DNA of 64,000 bases, taken from the NCBI GenBank assembly GCA_032027125.1, contig JAVSMQ010000001.1, positions 2,886,778 to 2,950,777 on the forward strand, in the 5' to 3' direction. Position numbers and translations under genes: made by a program. The DNA is from Candidatus Kapaibacterium sp. Its GTDB lineage: Bacteria > Bacteroidota > Ignavibacteria > Kapaibacteriales > UBA2268. The notes beneath the pieces were generated by a model. It saw only the letters and a program-made list of their open reading frames with translations. It was not told where the DNA came from and made no database searches. This document shows, one piece after another, positions 23,971 through 42,261 of this stretch (within the stretch, counting starts at the first letter, position 1; the number at the start of each line of letters is the position of its first letter).

Positions 23971-24045
23971 GGGGGTGTAGCTCAGTTGGTCTAGAGCATC
24001 TGCCTTACAAGCAGAGGGTCGGGGGTTCGACTCCCTCCGCCCCCA
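23971..24045 (+). tRNA. tRNA-Val: tRNA-Val (anticodon TAC)
   Basis: manual cloverleaf: acceptor gggggtg/cgccccc, D-arm gctc-agttggtct-agagc, anticodon stem tctgc/gcaga with loop cttacaa (TAC), T-arm ggggg-ttcgact-ccctc, discriminator A; no encoded CCA. Confidence 0.8.
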
Positions 24046-25275
24046 CGGAATGAAAATCTAAGTCCTTGTAATTGAATAAGTTGCAAGGACTTTATTTATT
24101 CATCCAACACATTTCCAACATATTTTATTTGTTTCTTGTTTGTTATTCTTCTTTTGTTTCAAGATTTAAGTTAAGTGCTGCATATAAATCTTTTAAGTGC
24201 CTATGAAAAAAGGTTAGTTATCTTGGAGAAGAAATAACATCCTTTTCTAATTTGACAAAAATATTGATTTATATTCGGAAATAAAAATTATATGAGTTCT
24301 CATCCAATATTATCTGCGAATTGATAAAGGTTAATTTTACAGGCAACAACAAATGCCTGTTTAAACAGGCACCATTCGAACTTCAATGAATTTTGCGACT
24401 CTTTTATGATTGTACAGTTTATTTGCTATCCTCGTTCATTATAACCTTGACAATTCGATTGCAGAGGCTATCTGTTCATCCAACTATTTTTGGCAAAAAT
24501 AATTGTTTATTTTATTGAATAAAGCCATCTTGTAATCTGAAGCGGTTTATCATCTCATTGATAAGAACTATCAAAGTTTTACCAACTGCTGAAGATACTT
24601 TTCCTGAAACTTGTATGTTTTAGAATCCGGGTCTTGATTATCTTGGTCAAAGACTGGTAAACCTTGTGTTTTGGCTATTGCTTCAAATAATAACTCGACA
24701 GCAAGGCTATCTTCATCATCGAAATCCACATTTATTTTCTTTCTCATTCCAATCATCCTTTATAATTATTTATTAATGTCTCAATTTACTTTCAAGTTTT
24801 AAAAGCATTTTCTTCATAAAAACGAAACGTTCTAAGTTGTAAAAGGTAAATTATTGTTGACTTATAGAAGTAGGTCAATTTTTCGTTGAAACAGTAAGAA
24901 AGTTAATCGCACTTGTACTAACGGTCTTCAGTCTGTTACAAGCAGATTTCTAATACCTTTGAGTAATATGTTTGGAAATAGTTTGAATGTTTTTTGGGTG
25001 TCGGACTTCAAAAAGGAAAACTCATACTACCTAAAATTATATTAACAGTTGTATGATTAATTTCATTCGGAAGTAAATATTTTATATTACGATAGCTATT
25101 ATTTTTAGTTTACAATGTCTTTATATTGCTTCAAAAGTGAGCCGATTGATGGATTCAAATTTTAAGATGTACTTCTTCTTATGAAATTCTTCGGATGGAA
25201 AAATAAGGTTAGACAATAATTATAATAAAAAAAACATATTTACGTTTCTACATTTGTTAAAATTTAAATGGTTTT

Positions 25276-25857
25276 ATGAAAGGTAAAGTTAAAAATATTA
25301 TTGTTGTAGTTCTGTTGGTGATATTCCCAATATCAGCCATAGGTTTGAACGTTTCTGTGCATAAATGCAAACAGAAAGGTACAATTCATTTTGACTTTTT
25401 CGGTACAAGAAATAACCCCGATAATCCGATTTGCGGCTGCAAGGCAAAAGAAACCCAAACATTACCCAAACAAAAAACACATTCTTGCTGTAATAATCCA
25501 AATATTGAAGTTGAATCCGGTGAATGCAATGAAACTAATAATACTGAAACTGAGAAAACCGGCATTCAAATCCTTAAATCTTCCTGCTGTTCTGATTCAG
25601 CTTTAGAATATTCAGTTAATTCAGCAATAATATCTTTGAATAAAATCAGGTTATTAATAGAAACACCTGTTATTTTTAATATTTTGTTTCATAAAATAAA
25701 TTATGAAGCAGGATATTTCGATAAAATGTCTGCCAAAATTTTTAAATATCCTCTTAAGAAACCGATAAGTAAAATCATATCATGCATATATTTCACTTTT
25801 GAAACAGGTGACGATTCCGTACCACTACATTCATCTGTGCTATATCCAATAGCATAG
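25276..25857 (+). CDS. secreted Cys-rich hypothetical protein (paralog of 52717..53271)
   Basis: signal peptide; first ~75 aa ~80% identical to the second copy (HKCK, ICGCKAKETQTLP, HSCCN, SSCCSDS). Confidence 0.5.
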   Translation: MKGKVKNIIVVVLLVIFPISAIGLNVSVHKCKQKGTIHFDFFGTRNNPDNPICGCKAKETQTLPKQKTHSCCNNPNIEVESGECNETNNTETEKTGIQILKSSCCSDSALEYSVNSAIISLNKIRLLIETPVIFNILFHKINYEAGYFDKMSAKIFKYPLKKPISKIISCIYFTFETGDDSVPLHSSVLYPIA

Positions 25858-25976: not shown

Positions 25977-27284
25977 TTGATAACAATGAAGAATAATATG
26001 AAAAAAATAGTATTAATATTGCTGTTATGTGTAGTTTGGGTAACCTGGAATTATGATTCTGTGGATGCAATTCCGGCATTTGCAAGGAAATACCAGACAT
26101 CATGTAACACTTGTCATACAGTCTATCCTCAACTCAATCCTTTTGGTGAATCTTTTAGAATTAATGGTTATCAATTTCCAAATGATGATGAGGAACAGAC
26201 AAAAGAAAAACCGGTTCAATTAGGTTCAGAGGCTTACAAAAGAGTATGGCCCGATGCAGTTTGGCCCAACTTTATGCCCGGTTCATCTCCATTTTCTTTA
26301 AGGGGAAGGTCTGCCTTTAAAATTGATTCCGATACTTCAGGAGCAACAACATCAGAATTTGGAATGCCGGCGCTTCAGTTTTACGGTGCAGGCGTTTTAG
26401 GTAAAGATATTTCAATCTGGGTTGGTGCTCATTTATTCGAGAATGGCGAAACCGGGAGTATTGACAACTTTTTTGTAAAGTTTGATAATCTTTTTACGGA
26501 TTATTTGCCTGAAAAGTTTTTATATGTAAGAGTTGGTCAATTCATACCCGAACTTGTGCCGTTTGCGACAAATCATAGAGGGCTTACCGAGTCGGCTTAT
26601 GCTTTTAATACATACGACCCGTCAATGGGTACTAAGTTCGTTGCTGTGCATGGTCATGGAGCCCAGCCGTTTGGGATAGAACAATTCCAATTGGGGGTTG
26701 AAGCAAGCGGCATAGCAGCAGGGAGATTAAGATATGTTATCGGTATGATAAACGGAAACGGAATCTCTTCAGACAATAATGCCGGTAAAGATTTCTACGG
26801 GAGACTTGCTTATAAAATAGGCGGTTTAGGATTTGACGGAACCGCAGGAGATGGTTCTACTTCGGTAGATACTATCAGTAATACGGGAGAAACATCATTT
26901 ACTATTGGTGGTTTTGGATATAAAGGAATCGGCACTGAATCAAATCTTAACGATTTTGATTTCTACAGAACAGGTGCTGACGTAAACCTTCAATGTGGTA
27001 ATTTGAGTTTGGTCGGCGGTTATATCATAGGCTCAAATGGTGAATTTGAAAATATGAAATATGATTTATATTTTGGAGAAGTTCAATATATGTTCTATCC
27101 ATGGCTGGTTGGATTACTGCGTTATGAACAGGCGAATCCAAAAACTTTAGAATCAGCACGGCAATTTGTGGTACATTTCAGTTCCTTAATTGTGGCAAAT
27201 GTCAAAGTTAAGACTGAAACGAGAATAAACCCTGACAAGATGGATAATATCAACTTGTTTATGGGTTTGGATTTTGCATTTTAA
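25977..27284 (+). CDS. candidate fused monoheme cytochrome c-porin (Cyc2-like outer-membrane protein)
   Basis: 435 aa; signal peptide; single CxxCH (SCNTCHT) within ~20 residues of the predicted cleavage site; the remainder is Gly/aromatic-rich with alternating hydrophobicity and a terminal ...LDFAF (C-terminal Phe), typical of a beta-barrel. Confidence 0.45.
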   Translation: MITMKNNMKKIVLILLLCVVWVTWNYDSVDAIPAFARKYQTSCNTCHTVYPQLNPFGESFRINGYQFPNDDEEQTKEKPVQLGSEAYKRVWPDAVWPNFMPGSSPFSLRGRSAFKIDSDTSGATTSEFGMPALQFYGAGVLGKDISIWVGAHLFENGETGSIDNFFVKFDNLFTDYLPEKFLYVRVGQFIPELVPFATNHRGLTESAYAFNTYDPSMGTKFVAVHGHGAQPFGIEQFQLGVEASGIAAGRLRYVIGMINGNGISSDNNAGKDFYGRLAYKIGGLGFDGTAGDGSTSVDTISNTGETSFTIGGFGYKGIGTESNLNDFDFYRTGADVNLQCGNLSLVGGYIIGSNGEFENMKYDLYFGEVQYMFYPWLVGLLRYEQANPKTLESARQFVVHFSSLIVANVKVKTETRINPDKMDNINLFMGLDFAF

Positions 27285-27320
27285 TAAATAATTTTTTAGA
27301 ATTTTAATAAAGGAAATATC

Positions 27321-27710
27321 ATGAAAAAATCAATGATAATTATATTCGCAGTAGCAATCGCTATTCTTAGCTCTACATTCTTCATTTCTTGTGATAAAAA
27401 AACTACAGTTGCTCCCGAGCATGGTAATACTATGGTGACAATGAATTATTCACCAAATCCGGTTGTAAATACTCCCATAGAGTTTATTTTTTCCGTGATG
27501 GAAGATAATGAAGCTAAGGATGTGACTGATGTTACCTGCGGATTAATGATGGGTTCTACAAATTTAAATCCCATGACTTTGACTAAAACAGGTACAGGAA
27601 AGTATATGGGCTCTTATACATTTGCAATGGCAGACAGTTGTAAGATTACTTTTAATTTTATGCATGACGGTGAAATGAATATGCAAGATTTCATGATTCA
27701 GGTTAAATAA
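27321..27710 (+). CDS. Met-rich lipoprotein (beta-sandwich, FixH/YtkA-like?), possible Cu-binding
   Basis: 129 aa; lipobox FISC; Met-rich patches MMGSTNLNPM and FNFMHDGEMNMQDFM. Confidence 0.35.
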   Translation: MKKSMIIIFAVAIAILSSTFFISCDKKTTVAPEHGNTMVTMNYSPNPVVNTPIEFIFSVMEDNEAKDVTDVTCGLMMGSTNLNPMTLTKTGTGKYMGSYTFAMADSCKITFNFMHDGEMNMQDFMIQVK

Positions 27711-27728
27711 ACAAGACCAAAGGGTAAA

Positions 27729-28331
27729 ATGTATAAAATAATATTATTGATATCAATATTAGCTTTAAACCTGCCAATGAGTCTCATTTCTTACGCAGGT
27801 GAGATACAGGGACATATTGATACAGATGCTAATAAAACAAAGTATAAAGCTAATACTGTTGTTTACATCGAGAAAGCTGATGGGAATTTCAAACCACCGT
27901 CGGTTAACCCGCAGATGGATCAAAAAAATCTCGTTTTTCTACCAAGAGTACTACCAATTTTGGTTGGGACTACTGTGAATTTTTTGAATAATGATGATGT
28001 GATTCATAACGTATTTTCTCCTGATGCCTGTGTAGGTAAATTTAACCTCGGCTCATGGAAAAAAGGTGAAGTAAAAGCCCGTAAATACGATAAAGCCGGT
28101 TGTAATTCAGTTGTTCTATGTAATGTTCATCCTGAAATGGAAGCTTATGTAGTTGTATTACAAAACCCTTATTTCGCATTAACAGATAAGGATGGGAATT
28201 TTATTATAAAAAATATCCCTGCGGGAAACTATACTCTGTGTGTATGGAACGAAAAATTAAAGTCTCCGTCTCAGGAAATCAATGTGCCTGCTAAAGGTAA
28301 AGTTGATATAGTTTTCACCTTGAAAAAATGA
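27729..28331 (+). CDS. secreted protein with a putative type-1 copper (cupredoxin) site plus a CarboxypepD_reg-like C-terminal domain
   Basis: 200 aa; signal peptide; H-x38-C-x2-H-x2-M (VIHNVF...LCNVHPEM) resembles the amicyanin-type ligand spacing; C-terminal GNYTL motif. Confidence 0.3.
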   Translation: MYKIILLISILALNLPMSLISYAGEIQGHIDTDANKTKYKANTVVYIEKADGNFKPPSVNPQMDQKNLVFLPRVLPILVGTTVNFLNNDDVIHNVFSPDACVGKFNLGSWKKGEVKARKYDKAGCNSVVLCNVHPEMEAYVVVLQNPYFALTDKDGNFIIKNIPAGNYTLCVWNEKLKSPSQEINVPAKGKVDIVFTLKK

Positions 28332-28514
28332 TGTTCTTTAACACAGATTATTATATAAATACTAATGTTTTTATATAAATAATTGTTCGATGGAATGTTG
28401 TAGTTAACCTCCTTAATCATATTTTGGTTAAGGAGGAAAACTGCTCTACGGATTTCTATATAATTTAGGACACAATTTGTGTTTAAAATAAATAAATAAT
28501 ATGACTGAATATAT

Positions 28515-29030
28515 ATGAAGAATAAATTGATTTTTATACCTGTTATACTTACTATTACTGCCGGTTTTTGCGGTTGGTTAATTGGCTGGACAAATATTAA
28601 ACCTATTAGCAGGAATATAACCGTTCAGGCAAGACAATATGCTTACAACCCTGAAAGAATAGATTTAAACAAAGGTGATACACTACATATAAAACTTGTT
28701 TCATTAGATGTAATTCATGGATTTTATTTGGAAGGTTATGATACTGATGCTGAAATCTCATCTAATCAAAAAACGTTCAAAGTCAGGAAGCCATCAGATG
28801 GAAATAATTGGAAAGATACTGAAGAAATCGTACTGATTGTCAACAAAACAGGGAAATTCAGATACCGGTGTTCTCATACATGTGGTACTATGCACCCGTT
28901 TATGCAAGGAGAAATGATTGTAAAACCTAATTCGGTATTCCATGCCGGTCTTGGCGGTATAGTTGGTTTGTTAAGCGGTATGCTGATAATGTTTTATATG
29001 AAAAAACAAAACAAACCCGGGGAAAATTGA
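28515..29030 (+). CDS. membrane-anchored cupredoxin with a CuA-type site (cytochrome oxidase subunit II-like domain)
   Basis: 171 aa; N- and C-terminal hydrophobic helices; H...CSHTCGTMHPFM = C-x3-C-G-x2-H-x2-M with an upstream His (VIHGFYLEGY). Confidence 0.55.
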   Translation: MKNKLIFIPVILTITAGFCGWLIGWTNIKPISRNITVQARQYAYNPERIDLNKGDTLHIKLVSLDVIHGFYLEGYDTDAEISSNQKTFKVRKPSDGNNWKDTEEIVLIVNKTGKFRYRCSHTCGTMHPFMQGEMIVKPNSVFHAGLGGIVGLLSGMLIMFYMKKQNKPGEN

Positions 29031-30502
29031 AAATGACAACAATGAAATCAATACCCGAAGACTTAAAAACCCTTAATCAGAAGCCACCCTTTCTGGAAAA
29101 GGAATCGAAGCGGATAAATTTATTTAACAAATTTCCATTATTAAAACGAATTGTTAAAACAAGGGCATTTCAATTTTCATTGATATTACCAAATTTGTTT
29201 GTTTTTTACATAATAATACTTGCCGGATTTATCGGTACTCCTGTCGGTAACAGAAATATTGCAATTGTTTTTATTTGGATTCTTTGGTGGTTTTTGCTGA
29301 TTGCAATAATTGTACCTTTCGCTTCAAGATTTTGGTGTACTGTATGCCCGTTACCTTTTTTCGGTGACTTGTTTCAAAGAATGGCTTTTATAAAAGTCAG
29401 AACAGGAAAAACAGGTTTTCTGAAAAACAAACTATATGGATTGAATAAAAAATGGTCCCCCAAATTATCAAATATCTGGTTACAGAATATTGGCTTTTTA
29501 ACTCTCTGTACCTTTAGTGCAGTACTTGTTACAAGACCATTTGTTACTTCTGCCGTTCTTTTTGCCTTATTGGTTATGGGTACCTTATTTGCAATTATTT
29601 GGAAACTGAGAGCTTTTTGCAGCTATATCTGTCCGGTAAGCGGGTTTTTGAGTATATATTCGATGACATCAACTTTAGAACTAAGAAGCTCTGATAAAAG
29701 TGTATGCAAGCAATGCAAAGAAAAGGGATGTATAAGAGGAAATGAAAACGGATGGGGATGCCCATGGTTTGAAAATATGGGAACAATGGAAAGGAATAAT
29801 TACTGCGGTTTATGTATGGAATGTGTTAAATCCTGCCCCCATGATAATATTTCACTAAATCTCAGACCTTTTGCAACAGAGACCAAAATAAAAGGTATTG
29901 ATGAGTCATTCAAAGGATTTATCATGATAGCTCTTGCAATGGCTTACTCAGTAATACTTATGGGTACCAACGGAACTATAAAAGACTGGGCAAATGCTCC
30001 CGAAACCGGATATTGGGGTGGATTTTTTCTTTACGCAGCTATATTGTGGGGTTCTGCACTTGTCGTCGTACCCGGTTTATTCTACGGTTTTGCTTATTTA
30101 TCCAAACGTTTTTCAAAAGTAACCACCGTATCAGTAAAAGATATATTTAAAGCATATTCATATATTTTAGTTCCATTGGGACTGCTTGCATGGATTGCTT
30201 TTAGTTTTCCTTTGGTATTTGTCAACGGTTCTTATATTATTTCAGTTATTTCAGACCCTTTTGGCTGGGGTTGGAATTTATTCGGAACTACAGACATTCG
30301 CTGGCAGCCGTTAATTCCTGAATATCTCTGCTATGTTCAATATATATTATTAATGGTAGGATTGGGTTATGCAATTGACCGGGGTTATGCAATAGGACTT
30401 AATCTTTTTAAATCAGAGAAAGCCGCCTTAAACGGTTTGATACCTATGGCTGTCTTTGCAACTTTAGTTACATTGGCATTTATGATATTTTTTATAGGTT
30501 AA
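29027..30502 (+). CDS. NapH/MauN/CcoG-family membrane polyferredoxin
   Basis: 491 aa; multiple TM helices; WCTVCPLPF and FCSYICPVSG (CxxxCP-type motifs in TM regions); two 4Fe-4S motifs CKQCKEKGC...GCPWF and CGLCMECVKSCP; start overlaps the upstream stop by 4 nt. Confidence 0.55.
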   Translation: MKMTTMKSIPEDLKTLNQKPPFLEKESKRINLFNKFPLLKRIVKTRAFQFSLILPNLFVFYIIILAGFIGTPVGNRNIAIVFIWILWWFLLIAIIVPFASRFWCTVCPLPFFGDLFQRMAFIKVRTGKTGFLKNKLYGLNKKWSPKLSNIWLQNIGFLTLCTFSAVLVTRPFVTSAVLFALLVMGTLFAIIWKLRAFCSYICPVSGFLSIYSMTSTLELRSSDKSVCKQCKEKGCIRGNENGWGCPWFENMGTMERNNYCGLCMECVKSCPHDNISLNLRPFATETKIKGIDESFKGFIMIALAMAYSVILMGTNGTIKDWANAPETGYWGGFFLYAAILWGSALVVVPGLFYGFAYLSKRFSKVTTVSVKDIFKAYSYILVPLGLLAWIAFSFPLVFVNGSYIISVISDPFGWGWNLFGTTDIRWQPLIPEYLCYVQYILLMVGLGYAIDRGYAIGLNLFKSEKAALNGLIPMAVFATLVTLAFMIFFIG

Positions 30503-30528
30503 TAATTTTATATGGAGAATAAGATTTA

Positions 30529-31515
30529 ATGAAAAAAAATTATATAGAAATAATAACTTTAATAACCATTGTTGTCATTTTAATAGGAACACCGTTTGCC
30601 GTTAGTGTTAATTCTCCCTGGAATAATAAAAACTCCAAGACCGGAAAGCCGCACACAAGAATTATTAATCTTACGGCAGTTGCCGGTCAGGGTATTTGGA
30701 CAGAAGATAAAGTTGACGGATTGAACTATTGGAATACGCAGTTTAAGAGGGCAAATATTATTCTGACAAAAGGCGAAAAGGTTATATTTAGATTTACAAG
30801 TGTGGATGTAACCCATTCTTTTTATGTTCCGGAACTTGGACTGGGACCTGTTATTGTTGAGGCTGGTCATATATATGATGTACCATTCACAACTGACATA
30901 ACCGGAAAATTTACTTACTACTGTACAACTGTCTGCGGTCATTGTCATTTATATATGCGGGGAAATATTGTTATATTAACAAATGAAGAAAAAAACAATT
31001 CTGATATAGTAAAGAAATTAACATTAGATACTATCAGACCCGAATGCTGCAACGTAAATCCGAAAATACCTGTTAAAGCATCATCCTTTGTTCAGCACGG
31101 CAAAATGTTATTTAAGAATAAAGGCTGCTACTTATGTCATGGAGAGGCAGGGAAAGGCGGCGTTTATAATCCGAATTATGCTCAAAAATTTGTTCCGACT
31201 CTAAATACTCTCGCAGACAAATTAAAACTTTCCGATAAAGATGAAGCCGACAGTATAATAAAGTATCTTGAATCGGGCAGCAATCTTGAGAAGCTTAATG
31301 ACAATCCGCCTTTTGAAACATATAACCGTTTCTATTCCCAGTACGGTTCAATTACCAAAAAGATACTTGACGGCGCTCCGAATGTACTGCGTTTGGATTC
31401 TTTAGGCTGCAATCCTCCGCTTTTGATGCCATCATGGAATCATCATTTATCCAAGCGTGATATTAATTCCATAATAGCTTATTTAATTAATATATATGAC
31501 TGGGAGAACAATTAA
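30529..31515 (+). CDS. COX2-like CuA cupredoxin fused to a C-terminal cytochrome c domain
   Basis: 328 aa; N-terminal TM; VTHSFYVPELG...CTTVCGHCHLYM (H-x36-C-x3-C-G-x2-H-x2-M); C-terminal CYLCHGEAGKGG heme motif; no CoxI gene nearby. Confidence 0.6.
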   Translation: MKKNYIEIITLITIVVILIGTPFAVSVNSPWNNKNSKTGKPHTRIINLTAVAGQGIWTEDKVDGLNYWNTQFKRANIILTKGEKVIFRFTSVDVTHSFYVPELGLGPVIVEAGHIYDVPFTTDITGKFTYYCTTVCGHCHLYMRGNIVILTNEEKNNSDIVKKLTLDTIRPECCNVNPKIPVKASSFVQHGKMLFKNKGCYLCHGEAGKGGVYNPNYAQKFVPTLNTLADKLKLSDKDEADSIIKYLESGSNLEKLNDNPPFETYNRFYSQYGSITKKILDGAPNVLRLDSLGCNPPLLMPSWNHHLSKRDINSIIAYLINIYDWENN

Positions 31516-31816: not shown

Positions 31817-32506
31817 ATGAAAATCCTCAAACATACACTACTTGCATTAACTTTACTACTTTCAGCAGCAAATCTTTCTTTTGCTCAAACATTTTCTAAC
31901 AGTCCAAACGATACAATCAACGTAATTGGAATGATGGAAGATATGGCAACGCTAAATATTCAGCAACTCAACATTTCTTCAAACACAATAACATTAAAAT
32001 GGGAAAAAGTTAGTGAAAATATACCTTCTGCCTGGGAAGCATCTGTTTGTGATAATAAGATATGTTACGCATCATTAATTGACAGCGGGACGATGAATCC
32101 TGTTAACCCTGCTGATTCCGGATTATTACTCCTTCATATTACTACCCATGTAAATTATGGTACAGCCATAGTTCGTTATGCAGTTTGGGATATTGCAAAC
32201 CCTGCTTTCAGAGATACGTTGACTTACATACTTTCGGTTAACAATTTTTCAACAGTAAGTGAAATTAATAATTTAAATGCTTTAAGTATATACCCAAACC
32301 CTGCATTTGATAATATCAACATCCAAACAAATTTGCAAACAGCTTTTATTTTTTCAATTATTGATATTACAGGTAATGAAATTAGGAAAGGATTTTCAGA
32401 AGTAAATTCAATATCACTTTCAACAGAAGAATTATCAAGTGGAGTTTACTTTATTCAAATTAAATCAAAAAACAATGTATTTACTAAAAATTTTATTAAA
32501 CGGTGA
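31817..32506 (+). CDS. small secreted protein with T9SS C-terminal sorting domain
   Basis: 229 aa; signal peptide; C-terminus LSIYPNPAFDNINIQ...SSGVYFIQIKSKNNVFTKNFIKR. Confidence 0.55.
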   Translation: MKILKHTLLALTLLLSAANLSFAQTFSNSPNDTINVIGMMEDMATLNIQQLNISSNTITLKWEKVSENIPSAWEASVCDNKICYASLIDSGTMNPVNPADSGLLLLHITTHVNYGTAIVRYAVWDIANPAFRDTLTYILSVNNFSTVSEINNLNALSIYPNPAFDNINIQTNLQTAFIFSIIDITGNEIRKGFSEVNSISLSTEELSSGVYFIQIKSKNNVFTKNFIKR

Positions 32507-32515
32507 CATTTTAAT

Positions 32516-33961
32516 ATGAAAATATATCTACTCATTATATTTGTGTGTACAAGTTTTATTGCGTACGCTGAAAGTAACATTATCTGGAATCCTGTCATAA
32601 ATATTTCCACAAATACTTACGGAAATATGCATCCCCGCATATCATTAGACGGATTAGGAAATCCATTAATAATTTGGGGAAGAATGTCTGACCAGTCAGT
32701 TTACTTTTCACGGTGGACAGGAAACATGTTCACAGTACCTGTAAAATTAAATCCTTCATGGCTTACTGTTGCAACGGCAAGCTGGATGGGACCGGACATA
32801 TCATCAAAAGGTGATACAGTTTACGTTGTTGTAAAGAGAGCACCTGAAACAGATGGAAATAACCGTATATTTATTTTTACTTCATTTAATGGCGGTATTT
32901 CATTCAATACTCCCGTTGAATTAGCTTTTATTGCTGACAGTGTTTCCCGTTTTCCAACAGTTACAACAGATTCGTCCGGAAATCCTATTGTAGCATTTAT
33001 GAAATTCAATTCCTCTTTTCTCGAATCAAGATGGGTGATTGTAAAATCTATTGATTACGGTAAAACATTTAATATTGATGTTAAAGCAAGCGGTTGGGGA
33101 AATTCTTCTGAAGTATGCGACTGTTGTCCGGGTGCCGTTATTTCTTCCGGCAACACTTGTGCATTGTTGTATCGCGACAATAACAGCAACATCCGTGATT
33201 GTTGGGCAGGTATTTCAACAGATAATGCAGATATATTCAAAAGTGGTTTTGCACTGGAAAATAATAAATGGAGTATTAATTCTTGTCCTGCAAGCGGACC
33301 TGATGGTGTTATCATTGGCGATAATATTTACTCTGTTTTTATGAATGGTGCAAGTGGAAATTATCGAAATTATTTAAGTAAATCTTCAATCAGCACCGGA
33401 AAAATTGAATCAGTTTCAAATTTGTCAGGTACAATAACAGGACTAAGTCAACAGAATTACCCCAGAATTGCAACTGATGGAAATGCAATAGCTGTCGTCT
33501 GGAAACAAACAGTAAGCGGTACAGCACAATTGCCGATACTTTTTACTAACAATGCAGCAAACGGTTTTACTTCTTCTTCTGAAATTGTTGACATTAGTGA
33601 CATAACCAATACTGATGTAGCCATGAGTAAAGGAAATATCTTTGTTGTATGGCAGGATGATAATTCAGGAACTGTAAAATACCGAAGCGGTACTTACTTA
33701 CCTTCTACTTCAGTAATAAATCAGGGTGAAAATAATAATTATTCGATTTATCCAAATCCTGCAAAAGATTTCCTAAATATTATTTCTCCCGAAAACAGAA
33801 TTTTCTCAATAAATGTAATTAATTCATTGGGTGAAATCATATATTCAGGGCAGTCAATTTCAAACACCAAAATAGAAACTTCAAAATTCTCCAAAGGCAT
33901 TTACATTTTACTTCTGAAATCGCAAAATCATATTTTTACTCAAAAGTTTATAATAGAATAA
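32516..33961 (+). CDS. secreted beta-propeller/BNR-like protein with T9SS C-terminal sorting domain
   Basis: 481 aa; signal peptide; C-terminus YSIYPNPAKDFLNII...SKGIYILLLKSQNHIFTQKFIIE. Confidence 0.55.
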   Translation: MKIYLLIIFVCTSFIAYAESNIIWNPVINISTNTYGNMHPRISLDGLGNPLIIWGRMSDQSVYFSRWTGNMFTVPVKLNPSWLTVATASWMGPDISSKGDTVYVVVKRAPETDGNNRIFIFTSFNGGISFNTPVELAFIADSVSRFPTVTTDSSGNPIVAFMKFNSSFLESRWVIVKSIDYGKTFNIDVKASGWGNSSEVCDCCPGAVISSGNTCALLYRDNNSNIRDCWAGISTDNADIFKSGFALENNKWSINSCPASGPDGVIIGDNIYSVFMNGASGNYRNYLSKSSISTGKIESVSNLSGTITGLSQQNYPRIATDGNAIAVVWKQTVSGTAQLPILFTNNAANGFTSSSEIVDISDITNTDVAMSKGNIFVVWQDDNSGTVKYRSGTYLPSTSVINQGENNNYSIYPNPAKDFLNIISPENRIFSINVINSLGEIIYSGQSISNTKIETSKFSKGIYILLLKSQNHIFTQKFIIE

Positions 33962-34257: not shown

Positions 34258-34611
34258 TTAAAAATTTATAACCTTATCGCTGTCAACAACCCATTGAGTA
34301 TATTCAACCATGTTACTTTTCTCAACGCCGTCAATCACAGGCAATTCATTTAACCCGCGGGCTTGTCCGCAAGTCCCGCATGCCTTAACTTTACCGCCTT
34401 TGTTGATAACGCTCTTCATCATTCTTTCAATGTTGTAGTAACCATTTGGTGTGTTAGTATTCGGCAAAGAGCAGAAAACAGCATCTGCCATCAAAAATAT
34501 TCTGACTTCAACACTTTCGTGTTCTTTTTGAAGAGTCATTGCAAGCCTTAAAGCATTATAGGCTTTTTCATTGCCATAAGGGGCATCGTTGATAACCAAG
34601 AGAATTTTCAT
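34258..34611 (-). CDS. DsrE/DsrF-family sulfur-relay-like protein
   Basis: 117 aa; MKILLVINDAPYGNEKAYNALRLAMT and a conserved Cys (KACGTCGQARG). Confidence 0.7.
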   Translation of the reverse strand: MKILLVINDAPYGNEKAYNALRLAMTLQKEHESVEVRIFLMADAVFCSLPNTNTPNGYYNIERMMKSVINKGGKVKACGTCGQARGLNELPVIDGVEKSNMVEYTQWVVDSDKVINF

Positions 34612-34635
34612 AATAGTACCTTTATAAGTGAATAA

Positions 34636-35871
34636 TTATATATTTATTGGAATTCTTAATAATTTGCTACTTATTTTTAATAGCATTTCATAAAATGACT
34701 TTTTCACACCAATTGGAGCAAGCCAGTATTTTTCAAACAAAACCTTACCCAAATGCCACCTTCTACTGACATTACTTAGATGAATCTCAGGATTAGGTTC
34801 ACCATAAAAATTTCCGTAAGCAAAACCTGATTCTCCATTTCCTGCTTCAATCATGCAATAACCAAATCCTTCAAACTGACTTCCGGAATTAATTCCTTCA
34901 ATTCTTTCAGATATAATTTGAGACACAATTTCAGCTTGACCATGAGCAAATACTCCGGCTTTTGGAAGATTCATCGGAATATCTTTTTTCCATCTTCCAG
35001 GTATAGATATTGATGTTACGTCTCCGATTGCAAAAACATTTTCGTATTTTGTTTCAAGAGTATTCAAATCTACAGGTATCCATCCGCTTTCATTTGTCAA
35101 TGCTGATTCTTTCAATACTTCAGGACTTCTATGTGGTGGTATGACAATTAAAAGGTCATATTTTACTGATTCTTTGTTTTCAAAAAATAACATTCTATTT
35201 TCGTTATCAACACTTTTTAGTTTGTAAAGCGGATTAAATATTATGTTTTTTGATCTTAATAAGTCCTCAACTGCCGAGCCAAGCACTGGTCCGGCAACAG
35301 GCATAGGCTGGGATTCCGGTGTGTAAAAATTTATAACAACTTTATCTTTCATACCTTTTTTTCTAAAAAAGTCTGAAATCAGTAGTGAACCTTCGTGAGG
35401 TGCGCCGGGACATTTATAAGGAAGAGAGCAAACTACAACTGCGATAGACCCTCCCTTGAAATTTTTTAAGTCTTCGTAAATTTTTAAGGAACCATCACGA
35501 GTAAAAAAAGTGTTCGTTTCGGATGTTAATCCGGGAATTGCTTCAAGGTTTAATTCTGCTCCAAGTGCTATAATTAAATAATCGAATGGCATTTCTTTAT
35601 TGCCTGAAATTATTTTTTTATTTGTTACATCAATTCTATTAACTTCTGAAATAACCAAATCAATTCCGGGAAGTAAAAGTTTTGATAATTGAATCTGAAT
35701 TTCAGAAGTTTGACGAGTCCCTGTCATTAGCCAGATAAACGAGGGTGCAAAAGAATGCATAGGATTCTTCTCAATTAGAATAATTTTGCAATCCAAACAA
35801 AGCTTTCTCCTTAATTCGTTAGCAGCCACTATTCCACCAATTCCGCCGCCTAAAATTATAATTGTTTTCAT
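34636..35871 (-). CDS. FAD-dependent pyridine nucleotide-disulfide oxidoreductase, sulfide:quinone oxidoreductase (SQR)-like
   Basis: 411 aa; N-terminal IILGGGIGGIVAANEL FAD motif; second dinucleotide fold; adjacent DsrE. Confidence 0.6.
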   Translation of the reverse strand: MKTIIILGGGIGGIVAANELRRKLCLDCKIILIEKNPMHSFAPSFIWLMTGTRQTSEIQIQLSKLLLPGIDLVISEVNRIDVTNKKIISGNKEMPFDYLIIALGAELNLEAIPGLTSETNTFFTRDGSLKIYEDLKNFKGGSIAVVVCSLPYKCPGAPHEGSLLISDFFRKKGMKDKVVINFYTPESQPMPVAGPVLGSAVEDLLRSKNIIFNPLYKLKSVDNENRMLFFENKESVKYDLLIVIPPHRSPEVLKESALTNESGWIPVDLNTLETKYENVFAIGDVTSISIPGRWKKDIPMNLPKAGVFAHGQAEIVSQIISERIEGINSGSQFEGFGYCMIEAGNGESGFAYGNFYGEPNPEIHLSNVSRRWHLGKVLFEKYWLAPIGVKKSFYEMLLKISSKLLRIPINI

Positions 35872-36644: not shown

Positions 36645-37022
36645 CTATTTCACTTTAAATCCATTCTTTCTTAGATTATCTCTTGCATCTTGTAAAGTTA
36701 CTTCTTTTAGTGCCATACCGCATAAAGGACAAGTTTCTGTATTGTCAGAAATTACATCCCAGTGCATTGGGTCTTGAAATACTTTGCCATCTTTGTTGAT
36801 GTCAATTTCATTGACATCAATAATGCCTTTTCTAATTATTGAAGTATCTCCACCTCCAGAATTTTGCATATTGTGACCTGAATGCCCTCCCATTCCACAC
36901 ATCCCCATCATTCCCATGCAGGAATTAATCAGCATCACTGATAATAAAAGCCCTAAGATAAGCAATGACTTCATCAATTTTTTATTTTTCATAGCATTAA
37001 TCCTTAACAAAAATATTTTCAA
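36645..37022 (-). CDS. small periplasmic heavy-metal-binding protein (CusB-N-terminal HMBD-like domain, Met/His-rich N-terminus)
   Basis: signal peptide; MGMMGMCGMGGHSGHNMQN; KDGKVFQDPMHWDVISDNTETCPLCGMAL resembles the CxMHP...CPxCGM metal-binding domain of CusB-type proteins; paralogs at 55537, 55950 and 63417. Confidence 0.6.
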   Translation of the reverse strand: MKIFLLRINAMKNKKLMKSLLILGLLLSVMLINSCMGMMGMCGMGGHSGHNMQNSGGGDTSIIRKGIIDVNEIDINKDGKVFQDPMHWDVISDNTETCPLCGMALKEVTLQDARDNLRKNGFKVK

Positions 37023-37044
37023 TTCTAATTTTCATTCTAAAAAT

Positions 37045-37650
37045 TTATTCAATTACTCTTAACCAAACTTTTCGTTCGTAGTAATTTCCTATCATCCCAC
37101 TTTTTGCATTCCCCTTAATTGATTCTCCCTTTGTCATCATCAATTGTAATTGAATTTCCGAATCTTTTGCATCGCTGAGAGGCTGAATAGTCATTGGCAA
37201 AGCTGTAATAACTGCGCCTTCAAACCCGGGTAACTTATCTCCGGTCAGACGGCATGATATTGGTAGATTCACATCCCAACCTTGTGCAAATTTTGAAAGA
37301 TAATTTGACTCAATTCTTGTTGGGTCAATATATATCCACGCATTACGATAAGGATGTGTTAAATCGTCATCCTTTGAACGTCCTATTACTGTAAGAACAG
37401 TTTTCCGCTGTCCCCGCTTTACTTCGATAAGGAATGTTCCATCTGATTGGCGAAGAGATTTCATTGATTCCTTATCAATTATATCAATGATTGTTTTCTT
37501 GACGTCAATCCAGGGACCGTTGTTCACATGACAGCTCATACAGGATTTTGATTTACTCAAAATTCCTACTGCCGGTGGATAAGCTAATGTTCTAAGAGCA
37601 AAAGCAATAAACAAGCACAAACCTGTTATTAAGATTAGTCGAGTCTTCAT
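37045..37650 (-). CDS. secreted monoheme c-type cytochrome-like protein
   Basis: 201 aa; signal peptide; single CxxCH (SCMSCHV). Confidence 0.4.
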   Translation of the reverse strand: MKTRLILITGLCLFIAFALRTLAYPPAVGILSKSKSCMSCHVNNGPWIDVKKTIIDIIDKESMKSLRQSDGTFLIEVKRGQRKTVLTVIGRSKDDDLTHPYRNAWIYIDPTRIESNYLSKFAQGWDVNLPISCRLTGDKLPGFEGAVITALPMTIQPLSDAKDSEIQLQLMMTKGESIKGNAKSGMIGNYYERKVWLRVIE

Positions 37651-37889
37651 TTTTATTCTCCTTTAAAAAATTAAATATCAATGTAAAAATAAGTGTTTTC
37701 CGGCAAATACAATTACATATTCTTGAAATTCTCCAAATATATTTCTAATGAATAAAATATCCTGCAATTCCCAGAACAATTGAAGGAAGTTCAAAAAATA
37801 AATGTTTAATTCTACCCTTCATATCGCTTCAATTCCTCTTTCATTAGTTCTAATATTTATTAATTCAACTATGTTGTTTCAAAATCATT

Positions 37890-38936
37890 TTAAAAAAATG
37901 GATACATTATTTTAAATCTTGGTTCAATATCCGGTCCGACTTCTAATGCAGGGGAAGGAAGCTTAAAACGATTCAAAGTTTGCTTTAACCAATTCCAGAA
38001 TGGCGGTCCATCAGGCAGCAGTTTAACAAGATTGTAGTCAAGAGTAAATATAAATCTCGGACTTCCCCATACTCCGGGATAATATTGTTTATTAGAGTTT
38101 GAATTCAACAAATTACTGCCATCGCTTAAATTTCTTGCAGCGTAACCAACACTAAGTTCCAATCCGTCAACCCAATATCTTTTTAAATTTACTGGCAACA
38201 TATTATAAACATTAAAAGAGAAAAAAAAAGTTTGTCCCGAATAGTCATCAATAAAATTACTACTTGGTACTCTTTTACTCTCACCAAACCAACCGGGATT
38301 TAAATAATTGCCTTTTGGAGTAATATTTTGTAGATAAGTGACATAATACTGAGATAGAAAAAATATTGAACCTAAAACATCAAAATAAAAGTCTGATGGC
38401 TCAAATGCCCACTCTTTTGAAAATCCATCGAGGACTTCTATGTAAGTCATATATGTTAGACCCAAAGAAGCCCCGATGATATTAGACATTTCATCACTCA
38501 TACCGGTTTCAATAAGTGATTCTCTAAACAAATAAGATATTAAATTACCTGAATAAAAGTGTCCGAATTTATCTGCATATAGCCCATATTCCCAATTTTC
38601 CGTGATTCTGAATCCTGTTTGATTTTTCCATATTGAATTAACCTGAAAAATATGCTGTGCTATAAACAAACTAACTATCGAACTTGTAACACCGATTGTC
38701 GGTAATAATTTAAAATGAGTGGATGCATAAGGTAAATCACCCGAAATAGTGTACCTCTTTGTATCGGCATATTTAAATTCGCTTTCATCAACTCTTATTA
38801 TAGAGTCTGATTTTATTGAATCATTCATCATGATTTTATTCGTCATTTTAATTGCACTCGAATCTAAATTATTACTCAAACAATCATTACTCATAATAAA
38901 AAGCAATATATAAAACAAACAAAAGGAACACTTCAT
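37890..38936 (-). CDS. hypothetical secreted / outer-membrane protein
   Basis: 348 aa; N-terminal hydrophobic segment; aromatic-rich; ends ...KIMYPFF. Confidence 0.35.
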   Translation of the reverse strand: MKCSFCLFYILLFIMSNDCLSNNLDSSAIKMTNKIMMNDSIKSDSIIRVDESEFKYADTKRYTISGDLPYASTHFKLLPTIGVTSSIVSLFIAQHIFQVNSIWKNQTGFRITENWEYGLYADKFGHFYSGNLISYLFRESLIETGMSDEMSNIIGASLGLTYMTYIEVLDGFSKEWAFEPSDFYFDVLGSIFFLSQYYVTYLQNITPKGNYLNPGWFGESKRVPSSNFIDDYSGQTFFFSFNVYNMLPVNLKRYWVDGLELSVGYAARNLSDGSNLLNSNSNKQYYPGVWGSPRFIFTLDYNLVKLLPDGPPFWNWLKQTLNRFKLPSPALEVGPDIEPRFKIMYPFF

Positions 38937-38986
38937 TCACAATTCTCCAGGTTAGATTCATCATCAACTTAAAGAATTGAAGCATA

Positions 38987-39328: not shown

Positions 39329-39397
39329 TTTGTTTCCTATTAAATTACTTAAAAAATCCGCTTACCAAAATTGCATGAGGGAAATAATTTATATTTT

Positions 39398-41494: not shown

Positions 41495-41569
41495 ATTTTT
41501 CCCCTCATATTGCTTCAATTCCTCTTTCATTAGTTCTAATCTTAACTACTTCTTCTTTGAATAAATACT

Positions 41570-42130: not shown

Positions 42131-42261
42131 CCAAAACCTCCTAAAATTAAAAAAAATATTTACAATCAAAATTATGAATTATCAAAGAACCTGCAATTTT
42201 CTTTGATAACATTTGACATTTCCAAAGAAAAAAATGCAGGTTTCTTGAAATACAACAATTC

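Follow-up and report, generated by a model that had tools for sequence, protein, structure and literature searches.

NapH and NosH act as quinol dehydrogenases that supply electrons to periplasmic enzymes, among them NosZ at its CuA site, and CcoG, of the same NapH superfamily, is a cupric reductase; CcoG-type polyferredoxins also serve as oxidase assembly factors. CuA centres, and the layout of caa3 subunit II with a transmembrane helix, CuA domain and cytochrome c, are known as ports of electron entry and not of exit. The iron-uptake operons FtrABCD and FtrAPBCD combine an outer-membrane protein and a periplasmic cupredoxin with a membrane polyferredoxin, to which the electrons from Fe(II) oxidation are proposed to pass. 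In the rus operon of Acidithiobacillus, Cyc2, a cupredoxin and a CoxB-like protein are accompanied by cytochrome oxidase subunit I. The Cyc2 proteins tested so far are all Fe(II) oxidases, which pass electrons inward (PMC8406198).

The DNA analysed here is from Candidatus Kapaibacterium sp. The window, which is the whole stretch analysed (64,000 nucleotides), contains a block of six co-directional genes on the plus strand at 25977-31515, separated by intergenic gaps of 36, 18, 183, ∼0 and 26 bp. The block, the gene preceding it and the efflux genes beyond it are listed below by window position.

25276..25857, plus strand: small Cys-rich, N-terminally anchored protein of the HYC_CC_PP / DUF8199 family (NCBIfam NF047658, 28.2 bits against a cutoff of 28)
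25977..27284, plus strand: Cyc2-family fused monohaem cytochrome c and 16-strand outer-membrane porin (probable start 25986)
27321..27710, plus strand: Met-rich lipoprotein, weakly YtkA/CtaK-like (lipobox FISC, 14 Met in 129 amino acids)
27729..28331, plus strand: secreted type-1 (blue) cupredoxin with a signal peptide, ligands H93, C131, H134 and M137, and a C-terminal CarboxypepD_reg-like beta-sandwich
28515..29030, plus strand: CuA1, a CuA cupredoxin between N-terminal and C-terminal membrane helices (copper ligands in DVIH and CSHTCGTMHPFM)
29027..30502, plus strand: nine-helix membrane polyferredoxin of the NapH superfamily with two C-x2/3-CP motifs and two ferredoxin-type Cys motifs (probable start 29033)
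30529..31515, plus strand: CuA2-cytochrome c, in which an N-terminal anchor is followed by a CuA cupredoxin and a class I cytochrome c domain (DVTH and CTTVCGHCHLYM, CYLCH, distal Met)
36645-48222, minus strand: copper/heavy-metal efflux genes (HMBD protein, P1B-ATPase, Cus-like RND pump)

In public gene calls the first gene of the block starts at 25986 and encodes 432 aa, and the polyferredoxin has 489 aa with its start at 29033. All six open reading frames of the electron-transfer module proposed in the earlier note were confirmed, and a search for the same block in other genomes recovered it in identical order in loci from Kapabacteria, Ignavibacteria, Bacteroidia and Fidelibacterota. Recurrence of one gene order in such distant genomes argues against a chance arrangement. 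The CuA1-polyferredoxin-CuA2 core was present in 44 of 44 well-covered loci (at least 15 kb) from more than 12 phyla, accompanied by the type-1 cupredoxin in 39 and by Cyc2 as the partner module in 31; an AioAB/IdrAB-like molybdoenzyme with two dihaem peroxidases was the partner in five. Other variants have an NAD(P)H flavoprotein inserted in the polyferredoxin, or a bc complex alongside the block. GTDB species genomes gave 205 matches to the block. CuA1 and the polyferredoxin are fused in frame in 15 loci and in many of the 50%-identity representatives of the family, and the metal ligands are essentially invariant across ∼70-80 orthologues. The six genes form one conserved operon for a copper-based electron-transfer chain across the cell envelope and, as the core is kept while its partner varies and CuA1 is fused to the polyferredoxin, the unit is a real copper-based link between the inner membrane and the outer-membrane Cyc2. 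This conservation and these fusions support the standalone conduit that had been suggested. A full-text literature search found no published description of the block as a unit, in agreement with the earlier suspicion that none existed. The block probably wires the cell interior to metals or oxidants outside the cell.

The first gene had been read as a Cyc2-like porin-cytochrome, which is borne out by the features that define the published Cyc2 family: a single CxxCH, a PxL motif, a minimum of 365 aa and a porin of 16 strands that resembles OprP. The composition and lipobox of the following protein agree with its description as a Met-rich lipoprotein. Its match to Pfam YtkA (E 0.077) is below threshold, while a Fidelibacterota orthologue has a PF13115 match on record; the function of CtaK is described in PMC9145763. 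The gene was found in Bacteroidota and Fidelibacterota loci only, and no His or Met column was invariant among nine orthologues; the protein may serve the CuA sites as a Cu(I) chaperone. In the type-1 cupredoxin, the amicyanin-like ligand set that had been noticed proved essentially invariant: His93 and C131-x2-H134-x2-M137 have the amicyanin spacing and are kept in 68-69 of 69 orthologues. Pfam matches were to Copper-bind (weak) and CarboxypepD_reg, and plastocyanins are the closest solved relatives.

Both membrane-anchored proteins carry the CuA-type sites ascribed to them. The CuA1 ligands (H68, C119, C123, H127 and M130) are kept in 80-81 of 81 orthologues, and the closest solved relative is the CuA domain of Thermus ba3 subunit II. 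The additional cytochrome c domain reported for CuA2 is evident from Pfam matches to COX2 (29.7 bits, cutoff 22) and Cytochrome_CBB3 (30.0 bits, cutoff 27), together with CYLCH and the distal Met; the match to the CoxB model (52 bits) is below cutoff. CuA ligands are retained in 74-79 of 83 CuA2 orthologues and haem motif positions in 57-63 of 83. Its closest solved relatives include Thermus caa3 subunit II (2yev_B), with which it shares the order of anchor, CuA domain and cytochrome c.

Twelve Cys are invariant among 40 sequences of the polyferredoxin, for which the AF2 model has a pLDDT of 78.5. More than 2849 homologues were found, with 432 representatives at E ≤ 1e-30; none of the relatives found has a solved structure. 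The protein had been called NapH/MauN/CcoG-type, and this holds for membership of the NapH superfamily but not for NapH or CcoG proper, as its matches to NapH (30.6 bits, cutoff 213) and Fer4_5 are weak. Lys and Arg number 11, 9, 13, 2 and 2 in the cytoplasmic segments and one in each of the four periplasmic loops, which places the Fe-S domain, with its two [4Fe-4S]-type sites and both CxxCP-type motifs, in the cytoplasm. The membrane Fe-S protein of the earlier note therefore stands with a correction: the clusters face the cytoplasm, and electrons need a quinone or another carrier to cross the membrane. Its membrane part has no conserved His or Met able to hold haem or copper, so a quinone would be the carrier between the cytoplasmic face and the periplasmic CuA.

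From these parts we infer an inner-membrane core in which the nine-helix polyferredoxin would be complexed with the two CuA cupredoxins on its periplasmic face, quinone carrying electrons between the cytoplasmic face and the CuA sites. The soluble type-1 cupredoxin would shuttle electrons between this core and the haem of Cyc2, and the lipoprotein is probably the Cu(I)-handling component that serves the chain's five copper atoms. The direction tentatively favoured is outward, to which we give a probability of about 0.45; the earlier note had allowed for Fe(II) or Cu(I) oxidation as well as for Cu(II) reduction. Electrons would pass from quinol or a cytoplasmic reductant through the polyferredoxin, CuA with cytochrome c and the type-1 cupredoxin to the Cyc2 haem. 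The final acceptor may be a soluble oxidant of high potential, located within the pore or beyond it; Cu(II), chelated Fe(III) or Mn(III), and a reactive oxidant are candidates. Such a complex would be a copper-based counterpart of the NapGH/NosGH and bc1-cytochrome c supply lines.

Several lines of evidence point outward, beginning with homology of the polyferredoxin to the NapH superfamily. A GltD/SudA-type NAD(P)H-FAD-FeS module is inserted in the cytoplasmic domain of some members of the polyferredoxin family (P0242, P0246 and P0253), in one polypeptide with a periplasmic cupredoxin; in locus L094 the flavoprotein-bearing polyferredoxin is flanked by CuA proteins and a cupredoxin alone, and in L012, L014 and L019 a separate GltD-like gene lies 3' of the block. 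Transfer from CuA (∼+250 mV) to NAD(P)+ (−320 mV) is unfeasible. Electrons run downhill from menaquinol to CuA. Six loci of Planctomycetota and Lindowbacteria have, in place of Cyc2, an AioAB-like enzyme and two dihaem peroxidases. This is exactly the synteny by which Reyes-Umana et al. identify the electron-consuming iodate reductase (idrABP1P2), for which they report deep branches in Planctomycetaceae and Lindowbacteria. An electron-consuming partner argues for outward flow, as does a clade II NosZ adjoining the module in L058. These AioAB-like proteins nevertheless exceed the NCBIfam arsenite-oxidase cutoffs and so could donate electrons. Also counting against outward flow, 23 of 83 loci, including all Aio/Idr-type loci, encode a rubrerythrin-like protein, which usually accepts electrons. 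To our knowledge a reducing Cyc2 is without precedent, and the entry-port character of CuA centres and of the caa3 subunit II layout is equally adverse. The Rieske/cytochrome b complex adjoining the block in L012, L014 and L019 would be redundant beside a second quinol dehydrogenase. Outward flow is slightly favoured by the precedent of the family, by the NAD(P)H fusions and by redox potentials; the known role of Cyc2 as an Fe(II) oxidase speaks for inward flow.

Inward flow is a plausible though somewhat less probable alternative, in which Cyc2 would take electrons within its pore from dissolved Fe(II) or some other reductant and pass them by the cupredoxin, cytochrome c with CuA2, and CuA1 to the polyferredoxin. 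The polyferredoxin would take the place of oxidase subunit I in the rus operon, whose order of Cyc2, cupredoxin and CoxB-like genes is mirrored here, and the sink would be the quinone pool or a cytoplasmic acceptor such as a rubrerythrin-like di-iron protein. Besides the sequence and fold features of gene 1, every one of which agrees with the Fe(II)-oxidase family Cyc2, this direction accords with the electron-entry architecture of CuA2, the arsenite-oxidase scores and the parallel with the Ftr operons, and 15 loci have FtrD-like (PF10080) genes next to the block. The rubrerythrin-like protein and a rubredoxin-like partner, a pair present in 23 of 83 loci and fused in L035 and L048, could act as a terminal reductase; in the window, however, neither a rubrerythrin-like gene nor another sink is present. 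From CuA, electrons would have to climb steeply to reach ferredoxin-type clusters, menaquinone or NAD(P)+, and the membrane potential also opposes their inward movement. There is no evident device for proton coupling, and the NAD(P)H-flavoprotein insertions make sense only with outward flow. The block also occurs in mostly strictly anaerobic lineages (Desulfobacterota, Omnitrophota and Thermoanaerobaculia). An unlikely reading is that the block responds to copper stress in either direction: by O2-independent oxidation of periplasmic Cu(I), as by CueO or CopI but wired to the respiratory chain, or by reduction of Cu(II) to Cu(I), the form exported by the Cus pump and P1B-ATPase encoded nearby, the lipoprotein capturing Cu(I). 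The efflux genes of the window lie 5-17 kb downstream of the block; in L004 a multicopper oxidase, histidine kinase, HMBD protein and RND pump follow directly, P1B-ATPase, RND pump or HMBD genes lie beside it in L005, L006, L008 and L017, and NosL copper chaperones adjoin it in 11 loci. The Met-rich lipoprotein and the cupric reductase activity of CcoG fit the same reading. The metal island described earlier is real in the window but does not generalise, as copper-efflux genes were found beside the block only in loci of the Bacteroidota type (5 of 83 plus the window). The Met and His positions of the lipoprotein are not conserved, the gene is missing beyond Bacteroidota and Fidelibacterota, and the need for copper of a block with five copper atoms may by itself explain its position in copper islands or beside NosL.

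It is very improbable that the genes belong, as stray subunits or assembly factors, to a conventional haem-copper oxidase or a nitrous-oxide reductase with its catalytic subunit encoded elsewhere in the genome, despite the similarity of the CuA domains to oxidase subunit II and the C-terminal domain of NosZ and the assembly role of CcoG-type polyferredoxins. The haem-copper oxidase subunit I motif was absent from every frame of the window and from ∼90 related loci, and neither CoxA nor NosZ was found among the large window ORFs scanned. The lack of a CoxI/NosZ catalytic subunit that had been remarked on extends to 82 of 83 related loci; the clade II NosZ of L058, which speaks for stray subunits, is ∼5 kb away on the other strand. 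Against stray subunits also stand the co-occurrence of the CuA1-polyferredoxin-CuA2 triplet throughout the well-covered loci, the physical fusion of CuA1 to the polyferredoxin and not to an oxidase, and scores far under the cutoffs of the CoxB, NapH and NosZ models.

Homologues of the Cys-rich protein at 25276..25857 occupy the matching position in L001-L004, L009 and L010, and DUF8199 genes are found there in L005 and L006. The gene is absent from loci other than the Bacteroidota type and is a lineage-specific upstream accessory gene.

The block comprised six co-directional genes on the plus strand, between 25977 and 31515, separated by intergenic gaps of 36, 18, 183, ∼0 and 26 bp, and was investigated through sequence, predicted structure and gene neighbourhood. 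The genes were as follows.

25977-27284, plus strand: gene 1, Cyc2-family cytochrome-porin, 435 aa from a TTG start (the public call starts at the ATG at 25986 and gives 432 aa)
27321-27710, plus strand: gene 2, lipoprotein (lipobox FISC; Met at 14 of its 129 residues)
27729-28331, plus strand: gene 3, secreted protein with type-1 copper ligands H93 and C131-x2-H134-x2-M137 and a C-terminal CarboxypepD_reg-like domain
28515-29030, plus strand: gene 4 (CuA1), cupredoxin flanked by two membrane helices, with DVIH and CSHTCGTMHPFM
29027-30502, plus strand: gene 5, nine-helix membrane polyferredoxin with CTVCP, CSYICP and the ferredoxin-type motifs C-x2-C-x4-C...CP and C-x2-C-x2-C-x3-CP
30529-31515, plus strand: gene 6 (CuA2), N-terminal helix, CuA site with DVTH and CTTVCGHCHLYM, and a cytochrome c domain with CYLCH and a distal Met

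Proteins of the Cyc2 family are recognized by the motif AXPXFAR[Q/K][T/Y] before a single CXXCH, PXL four residues past the CXXCH, a length of at least 365 aa and modelling as a 16-strand porin on OprO/OprP (Keffer et al.; PMC8406198). All of these features were found in gene 1. The signal peptide ends at approximately residue 30 and precedes the order AIPAFARKY-QTS-CNTCH-TVY-PQL, in which CNTCH (residues 43-47) is the sole CxxCH of the protein; the length is sufficient, the porin part is OprO/OprP-like with 16 strands, and the last residue is Phe. C43, C46 and H47 were invariant in 47 homologues; of 51 orthologues found with the block in various phyla, 48 retained the Cyc2 motif and the other three had gaps at the motif columns. 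Gene 1 gave no match to Pfam and NCBIfam models, and neither database has a model for Cyc2. By the published sequence criteria gene 1 is classed as a Cyc2-family member, which bears out the architecture that the earlier note had read from it.

An independent Cyc2 reference was taken from a Ralstonia solanacearum megaplasmid (NZ_CP051176.1) recovered by tblastn. In this plant pathogen an unannotated Cyc2 homologue (AVPAFARQT...CMACH...PEL) lies at 6920-8916 of the extracted locus, L091; the stretch has no features in the PLSDB gene table, and the whole record has only two. The next gene encodes a dihaem c4 cytochrome, as in iron oxidizers. Alignment of gene 1 with the Ralstonia protein was confined to the haem domain (46% identity over 41 residues, hhalign probability 97.7), in agreement with the poor conservation stated for the porin part of Cyc2 (PMC8406198). 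Detectable homologues of gene 1 numbered 484, none of them named. Six genomic contexts were examined, from Kapabacteria, Ignavibacteria, Bacteroidia, Bacteroidota, an unclassified JGI contig and Fidelibacterota (identities of 98, 67, 62, 59, 48 and 44%), and in all six the Cyc2-like gene was followed by the same five genes.

The copper sites predicted for genes 3, 4 and 6 were strongly conserved. The H/C/H/M ligands of gene 3, with the amicyanin-type spacing noticed earlier, were present in 68-69 of 69 orthologues, while the protein scored 18.7 bits against Pfam Copper-bind (cutoff 21.2). The CuA-type sites that had been proposed for genes 4 and 6 also held: the H...C-x3-C-G-x2-H-x2-M ligands of CuA1 were conserved in 80-81 of 81 orthologues and those of CuA2 in 74-79 of 83. 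CuA1 gave sub-threshold Pfam matches to Cupredoxin_1 and COX2 (PF00116; 16.3 bits, under the cutoff of 22); CuA2 exceeded the same cutoff with 29.7 bits and was also over threshold for Cytochrome_CBB3. Both proteins, CuA2 and CuA1, matched the Thermus ba3 CuA domain in the PDB (E values of 5e-11 and 6e-8), and scores against the CoxB and NosZ equivalog models were far under their cutoffs. Throughout the block, matches to Pfam and NCBIfam models were weak yet consistent. The gene 2 lipoprotein scored 14.1 bits against YtkA (PF13115; E 0.077, cutoff 25.9), a family for which its orthologue in one related locus, L007, has a match on record, and no invariant His or Met column was found among nine orthologues. 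CtaK provides a precedent for a lipoprotein in CuA metallation (PMC9145763), and by analogy the Met-rich gene 2 protein may serve the same function.

Gene 5 had been described as a polyferredoxin of the NapH/MauN/CcoG type. The Cys motifs are consistent with the NapH part of this description; the scores against the NapH models TIGR02163 and NF007013 were 30.6 and 27.5 bits (cutoffs 213 and 234), and no CcoG/FixG model was among the Pfam and NCBIfam matches. The AlphaFold2 model (pLDDT 78.5) has nine membrane helices, five of them in the C-terminal half, with the Fe-S domain (residues 196-290) placed between helix 4 and helix 5. Lys and Arg are concentrated at the N terminus (11), in the 2-3 loop (9) and in the Fe-S domain (13), with two each in the 6-7 and 8-9 loops and one in each of the four remaining loops. 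This distribution over the modelled loops places the Fe-S clusters and both CxxCP motifs in the cytoplasm. The fusions of CuA1 to the polyferredoxin agree with such a topology, since the C-terminal helix of CuA1 must bring the chain back to the cytoplasm. Twelve Cys were invariant in the family, and the family alignment contained no conserved His or Met in the helices or periplasmic loops. There is therefore no sign of a haem or copper site in the membrane, and a mobile carrier, most simply a quinone, would have to link the two faces. Sequence and fold searches returned no meaningful resemblance of gene 5 to a solved structure; to our knowledge no structure has been solved for any member of the NapH polyferredoxin superfamily. 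Gene 5 thus carries cytoplasmic Cys motifs of the NapH type, but on nine helices, and its partners are CuA cupredoxins instead of a NapG-type protein.

To compare the block across genomes, a polyferredoxin profile was scanned against one genome per GTDB species, giving 205 matches, of which the best 80 loci were analysed. Open reading frames in these loci were called naively, by taking the longest; MAGs were the source of most loci, and a few of the taxonomic labels appear to be mis-binned. By record title, the carriers among these best 80 of 205 were Bacteroidota, Kapabacteria, Fidelibacterota, Planctomycetota, Acidobacteriota, Desulfobacterota, Myxococcota, FCPU426, Binatia, Gemmatimonadota, Methylomirabilota, Omnitrophota, Lindowbacteria, Spirochaetota and Acidimicrobiia. 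The Desulfobacterota carrier Desulfoluna limicola ASN36 is cultured and has a complete genome (NZ_AP024488.1, locus at ∼5.553-5.570 Mb). CuA1, the polyferredoxin and CuA2 were together in all 44 loci of at least 15 kb, the type-1 cupredoxin in 39 and Cyc2 in 31. The locus from the Gram-positive Acidimicrobiia had CuA1, the polyferredoxin and a weak CuA2-like match, without Cyc2. In 15 loci an in-frame fusion placed CuA1 at the polyferredoxin's N terminus. A search of 1.84 billion cluster representatives with the polyferredoxin yielded 432 proteins (E ≤ 1e-30); a considerable proportion of them were ∼600-700 aa long and matched from approximately residue 170-200, corresponding to the CuA1-polyferredoxin fusion.

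The window matched a Candidatus Kapabacteria MAG: one protein (P0121) was 100% identical to a protein of the window, and the gene order in the locus from GCA_029980345.1 (L089) was identical to that of the window. Two contigs labelled 'Hyphomicrobiales' (L010) and 'Aenigmatarchaeota' (L023) are probably mis-binned. The block proteins of L010 are 60-77% identical to those of the window, and L023, 2.5 kb with block genes only, encodes a polyferredoxin of 60% identity.

The absence of a catalytic oxidase or NosZ subunit, remarked on from the sequence of the window, extended to the relatives. No motif of haem-copper oxidase subunit I was detected in the window or in any related locus, and NosZ was encoded in one of 83 related loci (L058), on the opposite strand; the pairing of a CuA protein with CoxA/CcoN or a NosZ propeller, by which an oxidase or NosZ complex is recognized, was not found. 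The interpretation of the block as orphan oxidase or NosZ subunits was rejected, there being no subunit I in the window or the related loci and the CuA1 fusions being to the polyferredoxin. No description of the operon was found in open-access full texts, which agrees with the earlier statement that the block is apparently not described as a unit; some papers do flag Cyc2 in Ignavibacteria or Bacteroidota MAGs among 'iron oxidation' genes.

The neighbours of the block varied by lineage. Counted over 83 non-redundant related loci, a PAS histidine kinase was present in 28, a sigma-54 response regulator in 25, a cytoplasmic ferritin/rubrerythrin-like protein in 23 and a small rubredoxin-like Cys-rich protein in 19, the last being fused to the rubrerythrin-like protein in L035 and L048. 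No rubredoxin-like or rubrerythrin-like ORF was found in the window. Further genes in the Desulfobacterota and Acidobacteriota loci encode copper chaperones (NosL), an ABC transporter of the MacB/FtsX type and its ATPase, a membrane protein rich in Cys and a PF10080 (FtrD-like) protein. An 883-aa multihaem cytochrome adjoins the core in L046. Downstream of the block in L012, L014 and L019 are genes for an NAD(P)H Fe-S flavoprotein resembling GltD/SudA, for a Rieske/cytochrome b complex and for cytochromes c with several domains (domains were annotated in L012 and assigned in the other two by shared gene clusters). In three homologous proteins (P0242, P0246 and P0253) a GltD/SudA-type NAD(P)H-FAD-FeS module interrupts the polyferredoxin's cytoplasmic domain, the same polypeptide including a periplasmic cupredoxin, and in L094 (4532-7345) the neighbours of such a flavoprotein-inserted polyferredoxin are solely CuA proteins and a cupredoxin. 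These four proteins resemble NOX/Fre-type transmembrane reductases, as a bacterial analogue free of haem. Other family members have an AhpC/TSA-thioredoxin-like domain at the N terminus, or else a cytochrome c554 or EbdC-type haem b domain; in a paralogous Planctomycetota locus (L030, 4564-5961) a CuA1-like protein and a haem b gamma-subunit domain of the EbdC/NarI type form a fusion.

Cyc2 was absent from six loci of Planctomycetota and Lindowbacteria (L029, L036, L038, L039, L051 and L065), which instead encode AioA-like and AioB-like proteins, both over the NCBIfam arsenite-oxidase cutoffs. All six also have two dihaem MauG/CCP-like proteins and a rubrerythrin-like gene, and cupredoxin genes were detected in two (L029 and L065). 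AioAB-like genes syntenic with two cytochrome c peroxidases are the signature of the iodate reductase idrABP1P2, whose deep branches include Planctomycetaceae and Ca. Lindowbacteria (Reyes-Umana et al.; PMC8692401). On the strength of this synteny the AioAB-like partner is probably an electron-consuming reductase, the alternative being an arsenite oxidase, and the six loci suggest an unrecognized electron supply for deep-branching Idr. A reading of the partner as an arsenite oxidase, proving the core to be an electron sink, was withdrawn in view of the iodate reductase signature; the evidence points the opposite way, towards outward flow, or is ambiguous.

When compared with known systems, the block shared parts with several. 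In Acidithiobacillus ferrooxidans the rus operon is cyc2-cyc1-orf-coxBACD-rus, with Cyc2-Cyc1-cbb3 as its neutrophilic counterpart. The block resembles it in a leading Cyc2-family gene, a type-1 cupredoxin, a CuA subunit-II-like (CoxB-like) protein and the location of all these redox centres outside the inner membrane, but lacks CoxA/C/D and the dihaem Cyc1 and has a NapH-type polyferredoxin between two CuA proteins. With NapGH, NosGH(-C1C2-B) and NosR it shares a membrane polyferredoxin of the NapH superfamily, with CxxxCP-type motifs and two cytoplasmic [4Fe-4S] motifs, and a redox partner in the periplasm; the Nos system, too, has a CuA centre as its last acceptor. The Wolinella Nos system requires a Rieske/cytochrome bc complex, and such a complex is encoded beside the block in L012, L014 and L019. 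Unlike these systems, gene 5 has nine helices rather than four and 30.6 bits against a NapH cutoff of 213, it is partnered in the periplasm by a CuA cupredoxin, in many cases as a fusion, rather than by a NapG/NosG ferredoxin or an FMN domain, NapA is missing from the block, and NosZ is missing from the window and 82 of 83 related loci. FtrABCD/FtrAPBCD, which serves oxidase-dependent Fe(II) uptake and is linked to Fe(II) and to copper tolerance, likewise has a single operon for a protein of the outer membrane, a cupredoxin of the periplasm and a polyferredoxin of the membrane, and the FtrD-like, MacB/FtsX and ABC-ATPase genes of the Desulfobacterota and Acidobacteriota loci extend the likeness. 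However, the outer-membrane protein of the block is a haem porin and there are two CuA proteins; no Ftr1-type permease was found among the block proteins and the annotated recurrent neighbour families, and the P19/FtrA-type signal amounted to a faint Iron_transport match in L008.

CuA2 has the layout of caa3 subunit II (Thermus 2yev_B), with membrane anchor, CuA cupredoxin and C-terminal class I cytochrome c domain, but has a single anchor helix and no subunit I partner, and scored 52 bits against a CoxB cutoff of 147.7. The six loci with a CuA-polyferredoxin core beside an AioAB-like enzyme and two dihaem peroxidases resemble the idrABP1P2 island, of which the window has none; in proteobacterial iodate reducers electrons are supplied by bc1 and cytochrome c551, not by a CuA-polyferredoxin module. 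CcoG/FixG is a member of the polyferredoxin superfamily of gene 5 and is likewise connected with copper; gene 5 lacks its C-terminal Ig-like periplasmic domain, has five membrane helices as its C-terminal half instead, and gave no match to the family. A set in Ca. Tenderia mentioned as 'polyferredoxin plus three hypothetical proteins' (PMC5371394) may be CcoG. The block is best placed under none of rus, NapGH/NosGH/NosR and FtrABCD, because of the missing CoxA and Cyc1, the low NapH score, nine helices and CuA partners, and the missing permease, respectively. It appears to be a variant of known envelope electron-transfer systems that is new in composition.

The block is a conserved operon with an outer-membrane haem porin, one type-1 copper and two CuA carriers outside the inner membrane, and a polyferredoxin whose clusters are cytoplasmic and which is linked physically to CuA1. 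If flow is outward, from quinol or cytoplasm, CuA and cytochrome c would take electrons from the polyferredoxin and hand them through the cupredoxin to the Cyc2 haem; to this direction we give a probability of roughly 45%. Proteins of the NapH type act as quinol dehydrogenases supplying enzymes of the periplasm, the recipient in the Nos system being a CuA centre, and an analogous role for gene 5 was counted for outward flow, as were the downhill step from menaquinol to CuA and the probable consumption of electrons by the Idr-like partner. The NAD(P)H-flavoprotein insertions point the same way, since they cannot run in reverse against ∼570 mV. Flow from Cyc2 to the inner membrane or cytoplasm is somewhat less probable: all characterized Cyc2 proteins oxidize Fe(II) (PMC8406198), and the caa3-like CuA-cytochrome c layout is that of an entry port. 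A rubrerythrin-like protein could act as terminal reductase, and in the FtrABCD model the polyferredoxin is the sink for Fe(II)-derived electrons.

The copper-efflux neighbourhood of the Bacteroidota versions makes a copper-specific role plausible for them, whichever the direction; such a role is unsupported elsewhere. The block had been placed in a metal island, and as a general property this was not borne out, copper-efflux genes lying beside it only in Bacteroidota-type loci (the window, L004-L006, L008 and L017). There is a real chance, although well below even odds, that CuA1-polyferredoxin-CuA2 constitutes a previously unrecognized class of respiratory membrane complex, a haem-free copper and iron-sulfur transmembrane redox machine in more than 12 phyla. 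Such a core would be completed, by lineage, with an inserted NAD(P)H flavoprotein or a rubrerythrin-like di-iron protein, would replace bc1/ACIII or a terminal oxidase, and would connect to outer modules that can stand in for one another (Cyc2, Idr/Aio-like enzymes or multihaem cytochromes).

Cyc2 is the main genetic marker for calling iron oxidizers in metagenomes, and the organisms carrying the block are heterotrophs and anaerobes. The subfamily of 484 homologues has a fixed copper-protein operon in six of six contexts examined, without Cyc1 or a terminal oxidase; together with the hosts, this suggests that Cyc2 may have a second, undescribed wiring, and calls of iron oxidation from Cyc2 need care in the phyla with the Cyc2 block. 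If the core were a new class of complex, FeGenie-style 'iron oxidation' Cyc2 in Bacteroidota, Ignavibacteria, Planctomycetota, Acidobacteriota and Desulfobacterota would mark a different pathway, possibly one that reduces extracellular oxidants. CuA centres are known to us solely from oxidases, NosZ and a few NO reductases; the CuA proteins of the block are subunits in their own right of a polyferredoxin of the NapH type, with fusions in many species. The NAD(P)H flavoprotein fusions suggest a route for electrons across the inner membrane to high-potential periplasmic carriers, and coupling to Idr/Aio-like enzymes fits export to such carriers. Desulfoluna limicola ASN36 makes the block experimentally approachable.

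Around the block, the downstream T9SS proteins (31817-33961) were rejected as conserved partners, matches being limited to sorting tails; the one exception was a full-length homologue of the 481-aa T9SS protein in L020, upstream of the block and on the opposite strand. A scan for sigma-70 promoters and terminators gave promoter matches no commoner than in shuffled sequence. Directly after tRNA-Val (23971-24046) is a 1.2-kb AT-rich stretch (24047-25275) with no ORF longer than ∼60 aa and a GC content of ∼0.29 in the surrounding 2 kb, which looks like a synteny break or island edge; the tRNA was rejected as an integration site, a repeat of its 3' end being absent from the window. In L001, with block proteins 91-98% identical, the block and the upstream small genes are kept and the rest of the upstream region differs (a T9SS protein and HicA). 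Small Cys-rich HYC_CC_PP/DUF8199 proteins recur in Bacteroidota upstream of the block and beside HMBD/efflux genes. The sites are listed below.

25276-25857 of the window: small Cys-rich gene upstream of the block
8385-8753 and 17370-17735 of L005: two further copies
9422-9787 of L006: one further copy

Between the block and the copper-efflux genes, the minus strand encodes a DsrE-family protein and an SQR/FCSD-like flavoprotein (34258-35871). Two P-II family (PF00543) genes on the minus strand (38987-39328 and 42262-42603) flank a P1B copper ATPase (39398-41530), and the group adjoins a Cus-like RND pump (42668-48222); L005, from Bacteroidia, has the same pairing of P-II and ATPase (4284-6788). 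Another RND-type pump (57285-60629, plus strand) is separate from the Cus-like set, and the two ORFs that follow it (60631-63367, plus strand) may be its partners.
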